A DNA stretch of 64,000 nucleotides, taken from contig OY970340.1 in NCBI GenBank assembly GCA_963717465.1, positions 128,001-192,000 of the forward strand. Reading direction: 5' to 3'. The notes beneath the pieces were generated by a model. It was not told where the DNA came from. It made no database searches and saw only the letters and a program-made list of their open reading frames with translations. The translations under genes and the position numbers were made by a program. Of the stretch, positions 26,225-32,806 are shown one piece after another. This stretch comes from Candidatus Bathyarchaeota archaeon (lineage in GTDB: Archaea > Thermoproteota > Bathyarchaeia > Bathyarchaeales > Bathycorpusculaceae). How positions within the stretch are numbered: position 1 is the first letter of the stretch; each line of letters starts with the position of its first letter.

Positions 26225-28936
26225 ATGGCTCAGCAAAAGTTAGACGCTTATTACAAAACGACAGATAAGCCTGTAAAGAACACGGAAACCGTGACGAAGG
26301 CATCAGCTTCACAAGTTCAAGCAACAAGTATTCCAGTTGAGAAAAGGAAAGAAAAGAAACGCCGAAATTTTCCTCTTGTTGCGCCTAAAAATCTTCCGCC
26401 GTCATATTTTGTTTCAGCATCCTATGATGGGCGCCAAAAAAAAGCAGTAGTGAAACTGTATGAACCTGAGTCAGGTCAAATATTTTTCTGGTATGATAAC
26501 ACTGGTCACAAACCTTACTGCTTAACTAACTTGTCACCGTATGATCTGGAGAAAATTGACCGTTTAGTTAATCATGAGGGTTTTGATAGCCTTGAACTTA
26601 TTGAAAAGTTTAATCCATTAATCAACGAGCAAGTTAAAGTTACAAGAATACTGGCAAAGGATCCTTTAGCTATCGGCGGACGACCAGGAGGCACGATCAG
26701 AGATATTATTCCGCAAGATTTTCCAGAAGTTGCTGACGGCAAAATTGAGCCTGAAGAAATTAAGATTTGGGAATCCAAAATCAAGTATTACCAGTCTTAT
26801 ATTTATGACCGACAGCTTTTGCCAGGCATGATTTATGAAGTGAAAGATGATAAGCTTGTACTCAAGATTGTTGATGATGCGGAAAAGTCTCTTAACCAGA
26901 TAAGATCAATTTTCACTGATGCCACAGAAGAAGAACGGGAATACTTGGAAGCGTGGGCTAGACTGCTTGAGTACCCAGCGCCAAAGTTTCGAAGAGCAGC
27001 TGTAGACATTGAGGTTTATGCGCCTGTTGCAACAAGAGTTCCTGATCCTCGTGAAGCTGTCTATCCAGTGATAGCTACTTCCGTTTATAGTTCAGATGGC
27101 GAAAAAAAAGTTCTGATATTGAGACGCGAAGGCGTTAGAGAAGGCAATCAACATTTAGCAGCTGACATCACATTGGAATACTGCGACACGGAAGAGGAAT
27201 TACTAAAAAAAGTCTTCGAAGTTCTCAACGATTACCCATTCATCTTAACATTCAATGGAGACGACTTTGACCTACGCTACCTTACGCATCGCGCCTTAAA
27301 CTTGGGCTTAAACAGGAATGAGGTTCCAATAGAGGTTGGCAAACGAGTATGCCTCTTAAAATACGGGGTACACATTGACCTCTACAAATTCTTCTTCAAT
27401 AGGTCAATTCAAATCTACGCTTTCAACAATCGCTACCGAGATGTTACACTAGGCGACGTGGGAAACGCGCTTATTGGATTAGAAAAAATTCATTTGGAAA
27501 AAAACTTCGGAGACCTAAACTACTCTGAGCTTGCGCAGTACTGCCTGAGAGATTCAGAAATCACTTACAAACTAACCAGCTTTGACGATGACTCCGCAAT
27601 GAAGCTCATTTTAGTATTAGCTAGAATAAGCAGCATGCCGATGGAAGACGTTAGCCGCCAAGGCGTATCTCGATGGATCCGTAATTTTATGCATCGAGAA
27701 CACAGAAAAAGAAATTATTTAATTCCTAACGCTCAAGACATTCTTACAGCAAAAGGCAAAACCGCCACTATCGCTATTATTAAAGGGAAAAAGTACAAGG
27801 GTGCCATCGTAGTCGAGCCGACTCCTGGAGTGCATTTTAACGTTGCCGTCATGGATTTTCCAAGCCTATATCCATCGATAATTAAAGTTTGGAACCTTGG
27901 TTACCAGTCAATACTTTGCAATCACCCTGAATGCAGAAAACACGTTATACCTGATACACCTCACTGGGTATGCGTCAAAAAGAGAGCACTAGAAAGCCTG
28001 CTTATCGGTTCATTGAGAGATTTGCGTGTCCGCTGGTACAAGCAACGCTCAAAAGATAAGACATTGCCACCTGAATTGAGAAGCTGGTACAACATTACTC
28101 AAGGAGCACTAAAAGTTATTTTAAACGCGAGTTACGGAGTTTTCGGCGCTGACAGTTTTGACTTGTATTGTCCACCAGTTGCGGAAGCAACAGCAGCCAT
28201 CGGCAGGTACTCTATAACTCAAATACTTAAACACGCAGAAACATTAGGCATCCAAGTGCTATATGGCGACACAGATAGCTTGTTTTTGAAAAACCCTTCT
28301 AAAGAGCAAATTGACGCGTTAATCCGTTATACGGAACACGAATTGAATATGGGCATCGACATGGATAAGAACTACAGGTACGCAGTTTTCAGTTCCCGCA
28401 AAAAAAATTATCTGGGCGTACTTGAAGATGGCACTGTTGACGTGAAAGGTTTAACGGGAAAGAAAAAACACATTCCAATATTCATAAAGAACGCTTTCAA
28501 CAATATGAAAGAGCGCTTAGCAAAAGTTAAGAGCCCAACGGATTTTGAAAAGGCAAAAAAAGACATCGCTGACATAGTTCGCGACCGCTACACGAAGCTT
28601 AAGAGAAGAGAGTGGGACAACATCAGCGAACTTGCATTTCATGTGGTCTTAGGAGAAGAACTCGTGCATTATACCAAAACAACGCCCCAGCACGTTAAGG
28701 CAGCGAGAATTCTGCAGCAAAACGGAGTTGAACTAAAAGCAGGCGATTTGATTAGCTTCGTTAAGGTCATAAGGGAGCCACGTGTGAAACCTGTTGAGTT
28801 AACTTCAAAAAATGAGGTTGATGTGGACAAGTATATTGATTACTTGCATTCCACTTTTGATCAGGTTCTTGACGCTTTAGGCTTAAGTTTCGACGAGATT
28901 ATTGGCTTAACAAAGCTTGAAAGATTCCTTGCTTAG
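26225..28936 (+). CDS. polB1: Family B DNA polymerase (PolB1 type)
   Basis: DIEV, FNGDDFD, DFPSLYPSII, KVILNASYGVFG, YGDTDS; N-terminal DNTGHKPY. Confidence 0.95.
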   Translation: MAQQKLDAYYKTTDKPVKNTETVTKASASQVQATSIPVEKRKEKKRRNFPLVAPKNLPPSYFVSASYDGRQKKAVVKLYEPESGQIFFWYDNTGHKPYCLTNLSPYDLEKIDRLVNHEGFDSLELIEKFNPLINEQVKVTRILAKDPLAIGGRPGGTIRDIIPQDFPEVADGKIEPEEIKIWESKIKYYQSYIYDRQLLPGMIYEVKDDKLVLKIVDDAEKSLNQIRSIFTDATEEEREYLEAWARLLEYPAPKFRRAAVDIEVYAPVATRVPDPREAVYPVIATSVYSSDGEKKVLILRREGVREGNQHLAADITLEYCDTEEELLKKVFEVLNDYPFILTFNGDDFDLRYLTHRALNLGLNRNEVPIEVGKRVCLLKYGVHIDLYKFFFNRSIQIYAFNNRYRDVTLGDVGNALIGLEKIHLEKNFGDLNYSELAQYCLRDSEITYKLTSFDDDSAMKLILVLARISSMPMEDVSRQGVSRWIRNFMHREHRKRNYLIPNAQDILTAKGKTATIAIIKGKKYKGAIVVEPTPGVHFNVAVMDFPSLYPSIIKVWNLGYQSILCNHPECRKHVIPDTPHWVCVKKRALESLLIGSLRDLRVRWYKQRSKDKTLPPELRSWYNITQGALKVILNASYGVFGADSFDLYCPPVAEATAAIGRYSITQILKHAETLGIQVLYGDTDSLFLKNPSKEQIDALIRYTEHELNMGIDMDKNYRYAVFSSRKKNYLGVLEDGTVDVKGLTGKKKHIPIFIKNAFNNMKERLAKVKSPTDFEKAKKDIADIVRDRYTKLKRREWDNISELAFHVVLGEELVHYTKTTPQHVKAARILQQNGVELKAGDLISFVKVIREPRVKPVELTSKNEVDVDKYIDYLHSTFDQVLDALGLSFDEIIGLTKLERFLA

Positions 28937-29485
28937 TCATTTTTGTTCCAAAACTTTTAGTCCACGAGACTTTAAGGGTCCTACAACATTTGGTCGGCTG
29001 AGAGTTGAAAGCAGAATGTATCCTAATACGCCTACAGTGATTAAGCTGCTTATCGTTATGCTGGTTATGCTTGCTAACCAAATGGGCAAAACTCCTAAAA
29101 CATTAGGTGGAGGAAAGAACAGCCAAAGATAACCACCAACAATAAATCCAATGGGCAAAGCACCGATGATGCAGGCTGGTAAGCGATATCTTCTCAGGAG
29201 CATAATAAGACATGCAGCGACCAGATTAGCAATCGGACCCAAAATCACATCCGTTGGGTTTACGTAGAAGTAAGCGTTTGTCAAAAGGCAGCCAACAGTG
29301 ACTCCACCAACTACAGGCCAACCGAAAAGTGCTGCTAAAGGAATAAGGGCATCAGCGATTCGCAATTGAATTGGACCAAAAGTAATAATAGGACTTCCTG
29401 AGACGAAGGATTCTAAAATGTTTATGACAACGTAGAGCGCAGTGAAAACGGCTGTCAGGGTTAAGTCTCGACTATTGAAATTCAC
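28937..29485 (-). CDS. queT: QueT family transporter (queuosine/archaeosine precursor uptake)
   Basis: AVFTALYVV, ITFGPIQLRIADAL, GVTVGCLLTN, DVILG; true start GTG at 29485 with GGAGGTG SD at 29491-29497. Confidence 0.88.
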   Translation of the reverse strand: MNFNSRDLTLTAVFTALYVVINILESFVSGSPIITFGPIQLRIADALIPLAALFGWPVVGGVTVGCLLTNAYFYVNPTDVILGPIANLVAACLIMLLRRYRLPACIIGALPIGFIVGGYLWLFFPPPNVLGVLPIWLASITSITISSLITVGVLGYILLSTLSRPNVVGPLKSRGLKVLEQK

Positions 29486-29557
29486 TTTTACACCTCCTAC
29501 ACCGGGGTTTCTTTTCATGGCGGAACGGGTGGAGGCACCACCTACCCGCCAATTGAC
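29486..29557 (-). promoter_or_regulatory. Structured 5' leader of queT, riboswitch candidate
   Basis: GC-rich ~70-nt leader between TATA (29577-29584) and the SD, with alternative helices and an internal anti-SD GUGCCUCC. Confidence 0.6.
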
Positions 29558-29626
29558 GATTCACATGTAAAACAGGTTATTAAACGTTCCAACTTAAAAC
29601 ACGAAAAAAGGGGCATGTGAAATGAA

Positions 29627-30520
29627 TCATAACAGCGCAAACAGAAGGGCTAATAAAGTGAAAACCAAGAAGATTAAAGCGACAATTGCGACGGCTCTGC
29701 GCTCAGTCATTGGATGCTTGTAAGTTATTAAAGTCATTAAGCTGCGTACATGATTGGAAACAAGTTTTTCTCCGTCGAATGCCACTTGTGCTTTTTTCCT
29801 GACAAAGAAGACTGTTGCAAGAATCAATATGGAATTGAAGACGTAGGGCAAGATGGAGATTATCATGAAAGATTTTAGATCTGCAATTACCGCGAATGAG
29901 GCTATTGTCATGCCAATGGCAAAGGAGCCAGAGTTTCCGACAAATATTTTGCCCTGAAAGTTAAAGCCTGTAAGTATTAACCATACTATCAAGGGTCCTG
30001 TTAAGAGATAAACGTATGAGTTTGATAGCGCCATCAATCCAAGAAGCACTATTGCCGAACAGATCGTTTCGAGACCATTAAAACCGCCGAGCATGTTAAC
30101 CGTGTTGGTTACTATCATGACGATCAACGGTATGATTATGAAGATGTACACGGAGCCAAATTGTATGGATCCAAAATAGGGCAGTGAGATGGATGTTCGA
30201 ATAGCGCTGTTTTGCACGCCTTCATAGGCATAGTACATTAAGGGTAGTGCGGCAATCAGTGGCATGAAGGCCTTGTAGCGCCATTTCAGATCCATCCAAT
30301 CGTCTAAGAGACCCATGAAACCACCGAAAAGTATGCATACAGCCAGCGTTAATGAGGCTGAGACCCCGTTTATTGATGTGTCGATGCCTAGCCTGAAGAT
30401 TTTGCTAAGAAAATAAATTACGAAAAGGTAAATGGTGGTTATTAAGATGTAAATTACACCGTAACCATTTGGAACTAAAGGTTGCCCAGGTTTATGTTGA
30501 TCTGGAACCTTTGGAAACAT
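29627..30520 (-). CDS. MraY/GPT family polyprenyl-phosphate GlcNAc-1-P transferase (AglH-like)
   Basis: GLLDDW, TNTVNMLGGFNGLE, IFVGNSGS; multi-TM; follows aglB. Confidence 0.85.
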   Translation of the reverse strand: MFPKVPDQHKPGQPLVPNGYGVIYILITTIYLFVIYFLSKIFRLGIDTSINGVSASLTLAVCILFGGFMGLLDDWMDLKWRYKAFMPLIAALPLMYYAYEGVQNSAIRTSISLPYFGSIQFGSVYIFIIIPLIVMIVTNTVNMLGGFNGLETICSAIVLLGLMALSNSYVYLLTGPLIVWLILTGFNFQGKIFVGNSGSFAIGMTIASFAVIADLKSFMIISILPYVFNSILILATVFFVRKKAQVAFDGEKLVSNHVRSLMTLITYKHPMTERRAVAIVALIFLVFTLLALLFALL

Positions 30521-30546
30521 GACGTTCGCGTCCTAACTTTCTTGAA

Positions 30547-32806
30547 TTAACCAGTCGAAGTTGCGTTATCGTAAGCGCTCCAGTTAATTTGGTACAGGGC
30601 AACCAGCGGTATGAGATAGACCCCTGTACCAATTTCATACTGCGTAGTCACATCTAAACCCTCAATATGCGCAAGCGTAAAGTAAGTTGGTGTTGCTCCT
30701 GTTTGACCACTAATATAATTGCTCAAGTCGTTCTCAGATGCCCATGTCTGCTCCACATTACTCAACAACTTGAAAATAGTCGAGTTAAGGCCCATAGCAT
30801 TCCATTGCCATGTATTTGTAGTTGTGTTTTCTAAGCCGAAGTTGTTTTGGTTTGTCCAATTGTATTCATTATTCATCCAGCTTGTTCCAAAAGATTCATT
30901 ACTCATGAATCTGCTCTGTGCTTCTCCGGAAATGCTTGCCATCCACGACCATTTACCTTCATCGCCATAACCTGCAAAACCGACCGAGTATCCGCTGCTT
31001 GAAGCTTGAAGTTCAAGTGTCACGAAAACTAGTACGTAGGAAGCATTATAGTGCTGTAGCATTTGTAGTGATTGAGTTTCAGTAGCCATAAAACTGTATG
31101 CTTGATTTTCAATTTGTGTAGTATTCTCAGTCGTGTTATCCGTTATTGTTGTGACATTTCCCTGTACAGTCAGCCATTCGCCGTAATCCCACCATGCACT
31201 AACTACTGTTGTAGAGTTAAGATTAGTCTTCATCCAGTTCAGCATATTTGACCATTGTGGCACTGATGTTGCAAGCGGAAGGCTAGAGGCTGTTATCGTT
31301 AGTGGCACGTAAGCGGAAGAGTATGCCCTAGGTACGCCGTTTGTTTGAGGAGAAAACGCAAGATTACTAACCAACAAAACAAAAATCAATAAGACAGCGA
31401 TAATGCTGAACTCTTTGCCAACACGGCGCAAACGCTGCTTCGCCTTCACTGAAATATGCGAAGGTTCCTTAAGAAGCAAGTAGAAGGGTTTAAGCACGCC
31501 CACAATGCCTAAGGCAGCAATCAATCCAAAAGCTGGAGCCAAAATCACCAGTAACCGCACCATCGAAGCTGCAAAATACAAGCCCGTTAAACCGAATAAT
31601 ATCAAGAAAATGTTTTTTGTAGTTGGATTTCTAATTACAAAGTACAATCCAATTATGAAGAATAGTATGGAGATTCCAAATTCAACGTACATTTGACCCC
31701 ACGAGGTAATTGCGTGTTCAGCAACCGAAGCTAAGATTGGAGTGTCGACTCGATAGAACGGGTCAACTGTCGATACAAATTTGGTTGCAATACTTGATAT
31801 CTTGCCATCATGCCATAAATATGCAAGACCACCAGCTAAGGCAGCAATTATGAAGCCGGAAAGAACAGTCTTGTATTTCATAGATTTGAGTTCCTGCCAG
31901 ATTTCTGACACGAATAGCAACACGAACACGGCTGAAGCTGCCAATACCGGAGCTGTCAGAAGATAGTCGATGGTCAGATAGGTCATGTTTATGCTTAAGA
32001 ATAACCCTAAACCGAAGCTAATAGCGTAGGAGAGCAAAAGTCGATGGTTGTATCTTTTTAGTATAATCATTACAAAAGCGAATATCGCCACTAGGCCGAA
32101 GAGGTAATACGCTGATCCCCAACCACCGGTGAAGAAGGCGAGGGCTAAGCCTGCGAGCACCGAATAAACGATGCAACTGTTTAAGGAGCGTTTTGTATCG
32201 TTAGCTCTTAGGAAAAGCAGGATGTACAGTAATAATCCGAGGACGCCGACTGCTTCTGTTTCGTACCAGCCCAAATTTGATCTGCCGATAACTGATGGGT
32301 CTAATGCTAAAAATAATGCTGCGAGTAAGCCGACTGTTTTTCCGCCCAGATCTTTGCCTATAAAGTATAGCACTAGTACCGCTAATGTGGCAAGAAATAC
32401 AGGTAGGATTGATAAGAAAGTCATAAGGTTAATGTTTATGCCAATGGCGGAGACAGCTTCGTATGTTATTGCACCTACCCAGGGCAGGATGGGCAGGGAA
32501 TTCATGTCTAGACCCCACGGATAGTTTTGTTGCATGTTAATCCAGTGAGTTGGCCAGTATGGTGATCCCAAGCCGTACTGGATCATGTGGCTGGTTAGGG
32601 AGTATTCAAAGAATGAGTCAAATTCCCCAAGTTGTAACGTGCCGCTAGATAACGGTTCCCAAGCCATCGGCAATATTCGAATTGACGAAAGCGACAAAGA
32701 GAATTAAAATTAAAGCTGAGTAGGACATTACCGTGGTTCGGTTCGCTTGAATGCGAAGCCTGCCAAAAGATTTCAAGCCCTTAACCAGTCTTTCCCTTTT
32801 TGACAT
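30547..32806 (-). CDS. aglB: Oligosaccharyltransferase STT3/AglB (frameshift ~32680)
   Basis: EFDS, SVAEH, WWDYG, DNTT, GDEGKW; N-terminus MSKRERL starts at 32806. Confidence 0.92.

Follow-up and report, generated by a model that had tools for sequence, protein, structure and literature searches.

The window analysed here, 64,000 nucleotides of a Candidatus Bathyarchaeota archaeon genome (contig OY970340.1, positions 128,001 to 192,000), carries on its minus strand a structured 5′ leader directly in front of the gene for the transporter QueT. This leader (about 29555 to 29486) is probably a cis-acting translational riboswitch that responds to a 7-deazaguanine, likely preQ0, by switching expression OFF, and it would represent a class absent from Rfam. 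It is one member of a widely conserved pseudoknot motif, whose parts are an outer helix (P1), an inner hairpin (P2) and a pseudoknot that includes the Shine-Dalgarno (SD) sequence. The basis computed here consists of conservation, covariation of P1 and the pseudoknot, the incompatibility of the pseudoknot with P2, near-balanced folding energies, the placement of the promoter and the association with particular genes. From these we infer small-molecule binding, the identity of the ligand, its binding site and the OFF direction. Taken together, the computational tests (Rfam, conservation and covariation) support the original prediction of a translational 7-deazaguanine riboswitch, which had been made from the letters of the window.

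The core of the element would be an H-type pseudoknot with a 5–6-bp P1 (GGCGG/CCGCC), a two-base L2 (UU) and an A-rich L3 ending in AAA-N-CC. In a second long helix, the 3′ half of the P1 loop (CCUCC plus ACCCG) would pair with CGG-GU and the whole SD. Reading 5′ to 3′ on the minus strand of the window, the P1 5′ strand UGGCGG (29546–29551) is followed by a junction GUA (29543–29545), in which G29545 is invariant and U29544 nearly so across the motif family. The P2 5′ strand GGUGG (29538–29542), the proposed “anti-anti-SD”, pairs across the loop UGCCU (29537–29533) with the P2 3′ strand CCACC (29532–29528), and CGUU (29527–29524) connects P2 to the P1 3′ strand CCGCCA (29518–29523), whose pairing with the P1 5′ strand shows covariation. 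The pseudoknot 5′ strand GUGCCUCCACCCG (29526–29538), comprising the anti-SD and ACCCG, shares positions with both the loop and the 3′ strand of P2, and is set apart from the P1 3′ strand by L2 (29524–29525). L3, the A-rich linker UGAAAAGAAACCC (29505–29517), ends in the invariant AAA-N-CC and leads into the pseudoknot 3′ strand CGGUGUAGGAGGUGU (29490–29504), which contains the SD GGAGGUG (29491–29497). A spacer AAAA (29489–29486) precedes the GTG start codon of queT (29483–29485), 5 nt after the SD, and the coding sequence (28937–29485, 182 aa) matches PF06177 with an E-value of 2.7e-23 (83.3 bits). Measured from the first base of P1 to the last base of the second pseudoknot strand, the element is 62 nt long (29551–29490). 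The positions that the original prediction had assigned to the TATA box, the leader letters (29552 to 29483), the SD, the helices and the QueT gene were all correct.

Searches against Rfam 15 at E ≤ 10, using 501 nt and 121 nt around the leader, identified no preQ1 or other credible family, and a search of 11 homologous loci at E ≤ 1 yielded no relevant family. The earlier judgement by eye that the leader departs from the consensus of known classes is thus borne out for preQ1-I, -II and -III. Full-text searches of openly available papers found no account of an archaeal preQ0 or preQ1 riboswitch or of a “preQ1-IV”; PMC9723716 names a riboswitch in its reference list only. In a 2024 preQ1 review (PMC11625349), only bacterial phyla are named and the word “archaea” occurs 0 times.

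QueT relatives are present in 47 of 61 related genomes, and most of their upstream regions share the motif in the order GGCGGGUGAGUGG..CCUCC..ACCCGUUCCGCC, A-rich linker, AAACCCCGG, SD. A pattern of three conserved blocks, scanned over one-genome-per-species contigs, matched at least 120 stretches. Among the matches listed, at least 96 compact (37–55 nt) instances lie in archaeal records, whose titles are mostly Bathyarchaeia but include Methanomethylicota, Nitrososphaerota/Nitrosopumilales, Promethearchaeota and Hodarchaeota. Twenty-four matches were left out on the basis of record titles and downstream open reading frames (ORFs): 17 with cores longer than 56 nt in G+C-rich bacteria, and 7 short bacterial matches without SD or QueT context. 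We also built a covariance model, R1, which does not force the three pattern blocks. R1 found one strong copy in the window’s genome (69.9 bits), 92 matches of at least 42 bits in 88 of the 151 genomes of a class sample (103 of 151 genomes at E ≤ 0.01), and matches in 28 of the 151 genomes of a phylum sample. Outside the class, 15 of 131 genomes had a match, concentrated in four families, and there were none in families f38 (0/19), f42 (0/13) and f47 (0/13). Conservation of the leader upstream of queT, on which the original prediction depended, therefore extends across many archaeal families. A second R1 match in the organism’s own genome (19.4 bits) was rejected as probably due to chance; only its tail and SD resemble the motif, and the ORF behind it may, by eye, be OB-fold-like. 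The queC gene of the same genome has no such leader.

The genes downstream of the motif point to a single pathway. For each instance, the longest of the ORFs that begin no more than 70 nt away was taken as the downstream gene, a crude rule that gave 143 distinct ORFs; six further instances had no ORF of at least 50 aa. By Pfam, 135 of the 143 are QueT (133 of them above the curated cut-off), one is QueC (L085; also TIGR00364, 195 bits), and two combine Radical_SAM and Fer4_12 domains (L100 and L118), their five best NCBIfam matches all being QueE models, below cut-offs. Five ORFs had no Pfam match; two of these (L076 and L080) were probably mis-picked, and two more (L051 and L178) are probably in the wrong frame on G+C-rich contigs. 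At one locus (L007) the motif heads a queT-queC-queT-HD operon. The tie to 7-deazaguanine genes that had been proposed from queT in the window is strengthened by these occurrences before queC and queE-like genes, and the downstream gene set is the regulon expected of a 7-deazaguanine sensor.

These gene associations bear directly on whether the leader might sense something else, such as guanine or another purine, 7-carboxy-7-deazaguanine, the archaeosine base or queuine. We consider this quite improbable, given that 138 of the 143 downstream ORFs serve preQ0 import or synthesis (QueT, QueC or QueE-like) and none general purine metabolism. It draws some weight from the fact that the ligand is deduced from the regulated genes only, and from L2, which is UU and not C, so that recognition must differ from that of class I preQ1 riboswitches. 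It is also favoured by one instance that precedes an unknown membrane protein. At that locus (L069:3-683, minus strand), a complete motif stands before a 227-aa multi-pass membrane protein that belongs to no Pfam or NCBIfam family, a candidate new 7-deazaguanine transporter.

Covariation was analysed on two alignments: A1, a MAFFT alignment of 110 distinct pattern-selected instances, and A2, consisting of 91 matches (85 distinct) from 100 loci, 50 of which were found by the model and not by the pattern. P1 is 99% paired on A1 and its closing pair covaries; on A2 the closing pair is GC in 61 sequences, AU in 17, GU in 3, UA in 2 and other in 2, while the innermost pair is GC in 82, CG in 2 and other in 1. 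The pseudoknot strands (A1 columns 26–33 with 80–87) are 88.1% paired, compared with 43–59% when the partner is slid by 1–3 columns. Seven of the eight pairs change on both sides, and the covariation of 0.290 (0.137 shuffled) was reached by 0 of 500 shuffles. On A2, a 12-bp helix is 91.6% paired (41–58% slid), with both-side changes in nine of 12 pairs and covariation of 0.358, against 0.159 shuffled. Compensatory changes in both alignments support the pairing of the SD in a pseudoknot, as had been proposed. The helix is, however, longer than originally described, adding ACCCG paired with CGG(U)GU. In the window it runs 5′-GUGCCUCC-AC-CCG-3′ with 3′-UGUGGAGG(A)UG(U)GGC-5′, and across the family it measures 12–13 bp.

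Entire helices have been exchanged in some members, as in ACAUCUC/GAGAUGU (L099), GUCUC/GAGAC (L111), GCCCCCU/AGGGGGC (L195) and UCCGAC/GUCGGA (L201), and a further swap distinguishes CCUCCU/AGGAGG from CCUCCC/GGGAGG. An alignment-free comparison gave −13.07 kcal/mol for each loop with its own downstream region and −11.39 kcal/mol with the downstream regions of others, a difference matched in 0 of 5000 permutations. In L099, from a record titled Nitrosopumilales, the 3′ strand is GAGAUGU in place of an SD-like GGAGG and the loop matches it with ACAUCUC; the loop has changed to fit, and occlusion before the start codon is therefore kept without an SD sequence.

P2 is 91.6–94.6% paired across the family with at least one both-side change in each of its four pairs, and its 5′ strand changes along with the anti-SD (for example GAGA...UCUC in L111). 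Because the P2 3′ strand shares bases with the pseudoknot 5′ strand, P2 and the pseudoknot cannot coexist. Of the helices named in the original prediction, UGGCGG/CCGCCA, GGUGG/CCACC and GUGCCUCC:GGAGGUGU exist, but the competing GCGGGU/ACCCGU helix found no support. A compensatory G-C to C-G change in L175 and L180 fits GCGG/CCGC only, which fixes that register and disfavours the alternative; one degenerate copy, L199, has GGCU/AGCC, which would suit the alternative helix. The invariant CCC of the tail and the 5′ GGG were considered as pairing partners, and neither side ever varies. A universal CCG:CGG mini-helix was rejected, failing in a subclass of loci (L191–L196). In this subclass (L191, L192, L194, L195 and L196) the tail reads AAACCCC-AAAA-SD and L2 is CCG(U/C/A)U. 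Here the pseudoknot is shortened, and the loop beside P1 once more contains C.

Folding energies computed for the competing structures suggest how a switch could operate. The predicted fold of the queT leader is P1 enclosing P2. In the window, P1 alone contributes −9.0 kcal/mol and P1 with P2 −18.9 kcal/mol, while the pseudoknot strands, in addition to P1, give −15.5 kcal/mol as a duplex and −12.0 kcal/mol closed as a hairpin. The medians of 111 instances are −8.7 kcal/mol for the contribution of the inner hairpin and −17.7 kcal/mol for the pseudoknot duplex, knot penalty excluded. By this modelling, the state with P1 and P2 and the pseudoknot state are near-balanced, with so small a difference that a ligand could determine which of them forms. 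When ligand is absent, the anti-SD strand would be held in P2 (GGUGG/CCACC), leaving the SD free and QueT made. A 7-deazaguanine, most likely preQ0, would bind at the junction of P1 and the pseudoknot and favour the latter, burying the SD and reducing translation of the transporter in a negative feedback loop. In other genomes, the same control may act on queC, queE or the queT-queC-queT operon.

A plausible binding site emerges from the bases that do not vary. Among the model-found instances, G9, G11, G13, G38, U41, C43, G44, C45, A61, A64–66 and C68–70 are invariant in 41 of 41, and column 14 (U in 40 of 41) and column 40 (U in 39, C in 2) are nearly so. Column 41, which adjoins the P1 3′ strand, is U in all 41 and never C. 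Several of these positions are unpaired in every supported helix, namely G13 (G29545), U41 (U29524), the AAA run and C68–69 (C29506 and C29505); the junction bases G29545 and U29544 likewise fall outside every supported helix. L3 itself varies from 6 to 15 nt across the family. The invariant unpaired bases lie together where P1 meets the pseudoknot. Such invariance is what a ligand pocket should show, and they may form that pocket.

The same bases speak against the idea that the leader works without a ligand, with a pseudoknot that simply dampens the translation of a membrane protein or sets its timing, or that it binds a regulatory protein or depends on tRNA. SD–anti-SD pairing can by itself tune translation, and an anti-SD necessarily resembles the tail of 16S rRNA, so its sequence is constrained by that alone. 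Simple occlusion, however, does not need the invariant unpaired bases, and in several archaeal phyla the same element stands before genes of a single pathway whose products belong to three unrelated families. A kink-turn was looked for by eye in the P1/P2 internal loop, applying the general rule by which kink-turns are recognised from GA pairs, and was rejected: GA occurs on one strand only, with none on the 3′ strand, and the loop is not kink-turn-like. We give these ligand-independent or protein- or tRNA-dependent explanations, as a group, only a slight chance.

Several points weigh against a 7-deazaguanine riboswitch and temper the figures above. The pattern used to select A1 forces its three blocks to be invariant, A2 was fitted to a pseudoknot-only model, so that its counts lean towards the pseudoknot, and the relatedness of the sequences means that the shuffle statistics overstate significance. 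Part of the long helix is not universal, as the L191–L196 subclass has no CGG in its tail. Those core bases that are conserved most strongly never vary and so give no covariation signal, and the pocket is in that sense a guess. Before the P1 3′ strand the leader has UU (29525–29524), where class I has (U/A)C with a C that pairs with preQ1. For a sequence of its composition the leader has an ordinary folding energy (z = −1.25, equalled in 21 of 200 shuffles), and a single leader sequence therefore proves nothing; conservation and covariation in related genomes are the reasons for regarding it as more than chance. Its composition does stand out from the AT-rich surroundings, as had been noticed at the outset, with 56.7% G+C compared with 40.2% for the window and 33.8% for the upstream spacer, and only 1% of 67-nt windows reach so high a G+C content. 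Finally, a preQ1 synthase of the QueF-II type is encoded in the window’s genome (TIGR03139, 160 bits; cut-off 86.9), which makes preQ1 a possible ligand in this organism.

For the family as a whole, preQ0 is the likelier signal. It is the base that archaea insert into tRNA, and since the window’s genome encodes both QueC (130 bits) and a 542-aa TGT (278 bits), preQ0 is both made and used there. QueF-II was found in only 3 of the 151 class genomes (2 above cut-off), compared with 103 of 151 for the motif in the same sample, both searches having the same by-family denominators. Given this rarity, most carriers of the motif are without evident preQ1 synthesis, and preQ0 is favoured over preQ1. 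The QueF-II gene of the window’s genome lies at G000:C1:1228338-1230254 (locus L214, 1318–3234) and is followed by two genes, one for a protein with a SLATT domain and one for a divergent TGT-like protein of 329 aa. This group, about 2 kb upstream of queC (L156, 1456–2124), has the look of an accessory 7-deazaguanine island that perhaps serves to modify DNA or in defence.

Like riboswitches generally, the leader is a structured and conserved 5′ element associated with genes that belong to a single pathway, and its closest points of comparison are the three preQ1 classes. The class I aptamer is about 34 nt long. Like preQ1-I (RF00522), the leader has an H-type pseudoknot, a 5-bp P1 directly followed by an A-rich strand, and a 3′ tail whose pairing partner is the P1 loop and which overlaps the SD in translational members; like preQ1-I, it would control queT and genes of preQ0/preQ1 biosynthesis. 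The leader differs in being archaeal and about twice as long, with a 12–13-bp second helix that buries the whole SD and a competing inner hairpin. The review (PMC11625349) describes class I as a small H-type pseudoknot with UC or AC immediately before the P1 3′ strand, where the C forms a pair with the ligand; class II as an HLout pseudoknot with four pairing regions, found in Bacillota only, with the SD in P3; and class III as an HLout aptamer in which a distal anti-SD:SD helix serves as the platform, far from the pocket. In its proposed mode of action, a pseudoknot that hides the SD and governs queT and other que genes, the leader resembles all three. The preQ1-II class (RF01054; the queT/COG4708 motif) is similar in its location before queT, its size, its purely translational mode and an SD that lies fully in a pseudoknot helix. 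The leader has this SD-containing pseudoknot helix upstream of queT, which is a functional likeness and not membership: it does not match the class II model, and is a plain H-type pseudoknot with P1 at its 5′ end, in contrast to the HLout P1–P4 arrangement given in that text. With preQ1-III (RF02680) it shares an expression platform in which the 3′ tail takes part in a separate helix of anti-SD and SD; again there is no model match, and its anti-SD strand adjoins the conserved core, whereas the class III platform is described there as distal.

It follows from the failed model tests, UU in place of C and a size about twice that of class I that the leader is better filed as a new class than as a member of a known one. 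A very divergent member of preQ1-I, with the same H-type fold and kind of pocket, P2 lengthened over the SD and L1 expanded, is nevertheless conceivable, if unlikely. The common architecture of 5-bp P1, A-rich segment and 3′ strand pairing back into the P1 loop speaks for such a relationship, but there is no RF00522 match at E ≤ 10 on the 121-nt piece, the two bases before the P1 3′ strand are UU, the last of them never C, and the element has about twice the length of a class I aptamer with a second helix of 12–13 bp. A link of sorts is provided by other leaders of the same genus (L018–L023), which share the tail AAA-N-CCCGG, are matched weakly by R1 (14–17 bits), and have “AC” before the P1 3′ strand, a type II hallmark according to PMC11625349.

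This second queT leader type occurs at L018:1436-1506, L019:1945-2015(-), L020–L022:1436-1506, L023:1933-2003(-) and L215:1501-1566(-), before other QueT paralogues of the same genus or family, and has the form GGUAG-UUUCCGUAUAUAAC-CUACC-UUAAAAAACC(C)GG. It resembles the window’s leader in its position upstream of QueT paralogues and in its AAAAAACC(C)GG tail after a 5-bp stem. It differs in being a short stem-loop (GGUAG...CUACC) that lacks the long anti-SD helix and has “AC” ahead of the P1 3′ strand. Searches with a model of this type (R3) found it in 1 of the 151 class genomes, and Rfam has no family that matches it. This second type could represent a preQ1-I-like riboswitch in archaea.

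Promoter placement agrees with an RNA that contains the complete structure. Across the 143 upstream regions, TATA-like words peak at −37 to −32 from the first G of GCGG, and the A+T content reaches 84–90% at −35 to −29. In the window, the TATA box of the queT promoter, TTTAATAA (29577–29584), starts at −35 from this G and is followed by a 25-nt A+T-rich spacer (29576–29552). With TATA at a fixed distance, the RNA should begin just 5′ of P1. From the position of the TATA box and the usual archaeal TATA-to-start distance, the transcript 5′ end is predicted 3–6 nt before P1, near 29552–29556. A transcription start downstream of the structure, which had been envisaged as a difficulty for the original prediction, is at odds with the conserved TATA.

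A second difficulty raised at that time was translation from an upstream ATG at 29518, in which case the supposed leader would encode the N-terminus of QueT. This ATG is in frame with the ORF and would give a protein of 193 aa. Yet the N-termini of homologues align at the GTG at 29485, which has the SD 5 nt before it, and in the GTG-started protein the match to the Pfam QueT profile starts at residue 8. Moreover, linker lengths differ by non-multiples of three and most homologues are without the ATG. We therefore attach next to no credence to a coding function.

Beyond the window, we lean, if only narrowly, towards a more specific proposal: that these leaders constitute a fourth, structurally distinct 7-deazaguanine riboswitch class native to archaea (Bathyarchaeia, other Thermoproteota and some Asgard) and tuned to preQ0 and not to preQ1, in which the ligand is read by an invariant C of the L3 “CCC” together with the L2 uridines, in place of the L2 cytosine used by class I, and an anti-anti-SD hairpin alternates with a 12–13-bp pseudoknot that buries the SD. 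Validated riboswitch classes in archaea are very few. If the proposal is correct, the element would offer a handle on archaeal translation control through access to the Shine-Dalgarno sequence, show how archaea balance preQ0 import against synthesis for archaeosine, and extend a much-studied family of ligands by a new RNA fold. In uncultured lineages it would also mark 7-deazaguanine genes in genome sequences, among them those for unknown transporters like the L069 protein. The element is widespread, compact (an RNA of ~70 nt) and easily synthesised, and the candidate ligands are commercially available.

Some QueT genes carry altered versions of the motif. Degenerate copies precede QueT at L199 (G140:C140) and L193 (G169:C281), the latter heavily decayed. 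In L199 the P1 3′ strand is CCAA and the tail CCAC, and its GGCU/AGCC preserves the alternative inner helix. The two copies may be switches locked in one state or in the course of decay. At L015 (G054:C3), a longer and different G+C-rich leader, which starts GGCGGGUUGAGCUCCGCC, ends CCUCCGCAGAAAGUGGGGGUG and is not matched by R1, lies about 110 nt upstream of QueT.

Directly upstream of the queT promoter in the window lies an N-glycosylation gene pair encoding a family-4 glycosyltransferase and an STT3/AglB-type oligosaccharyltransferase (29627–32697, minus strand). On the other side, a 903-aa ORF on the plus strand (26225–28936) converges on queT; its translation contains YGDTDS, which by eye resembles a family B DNA polymerase motif.
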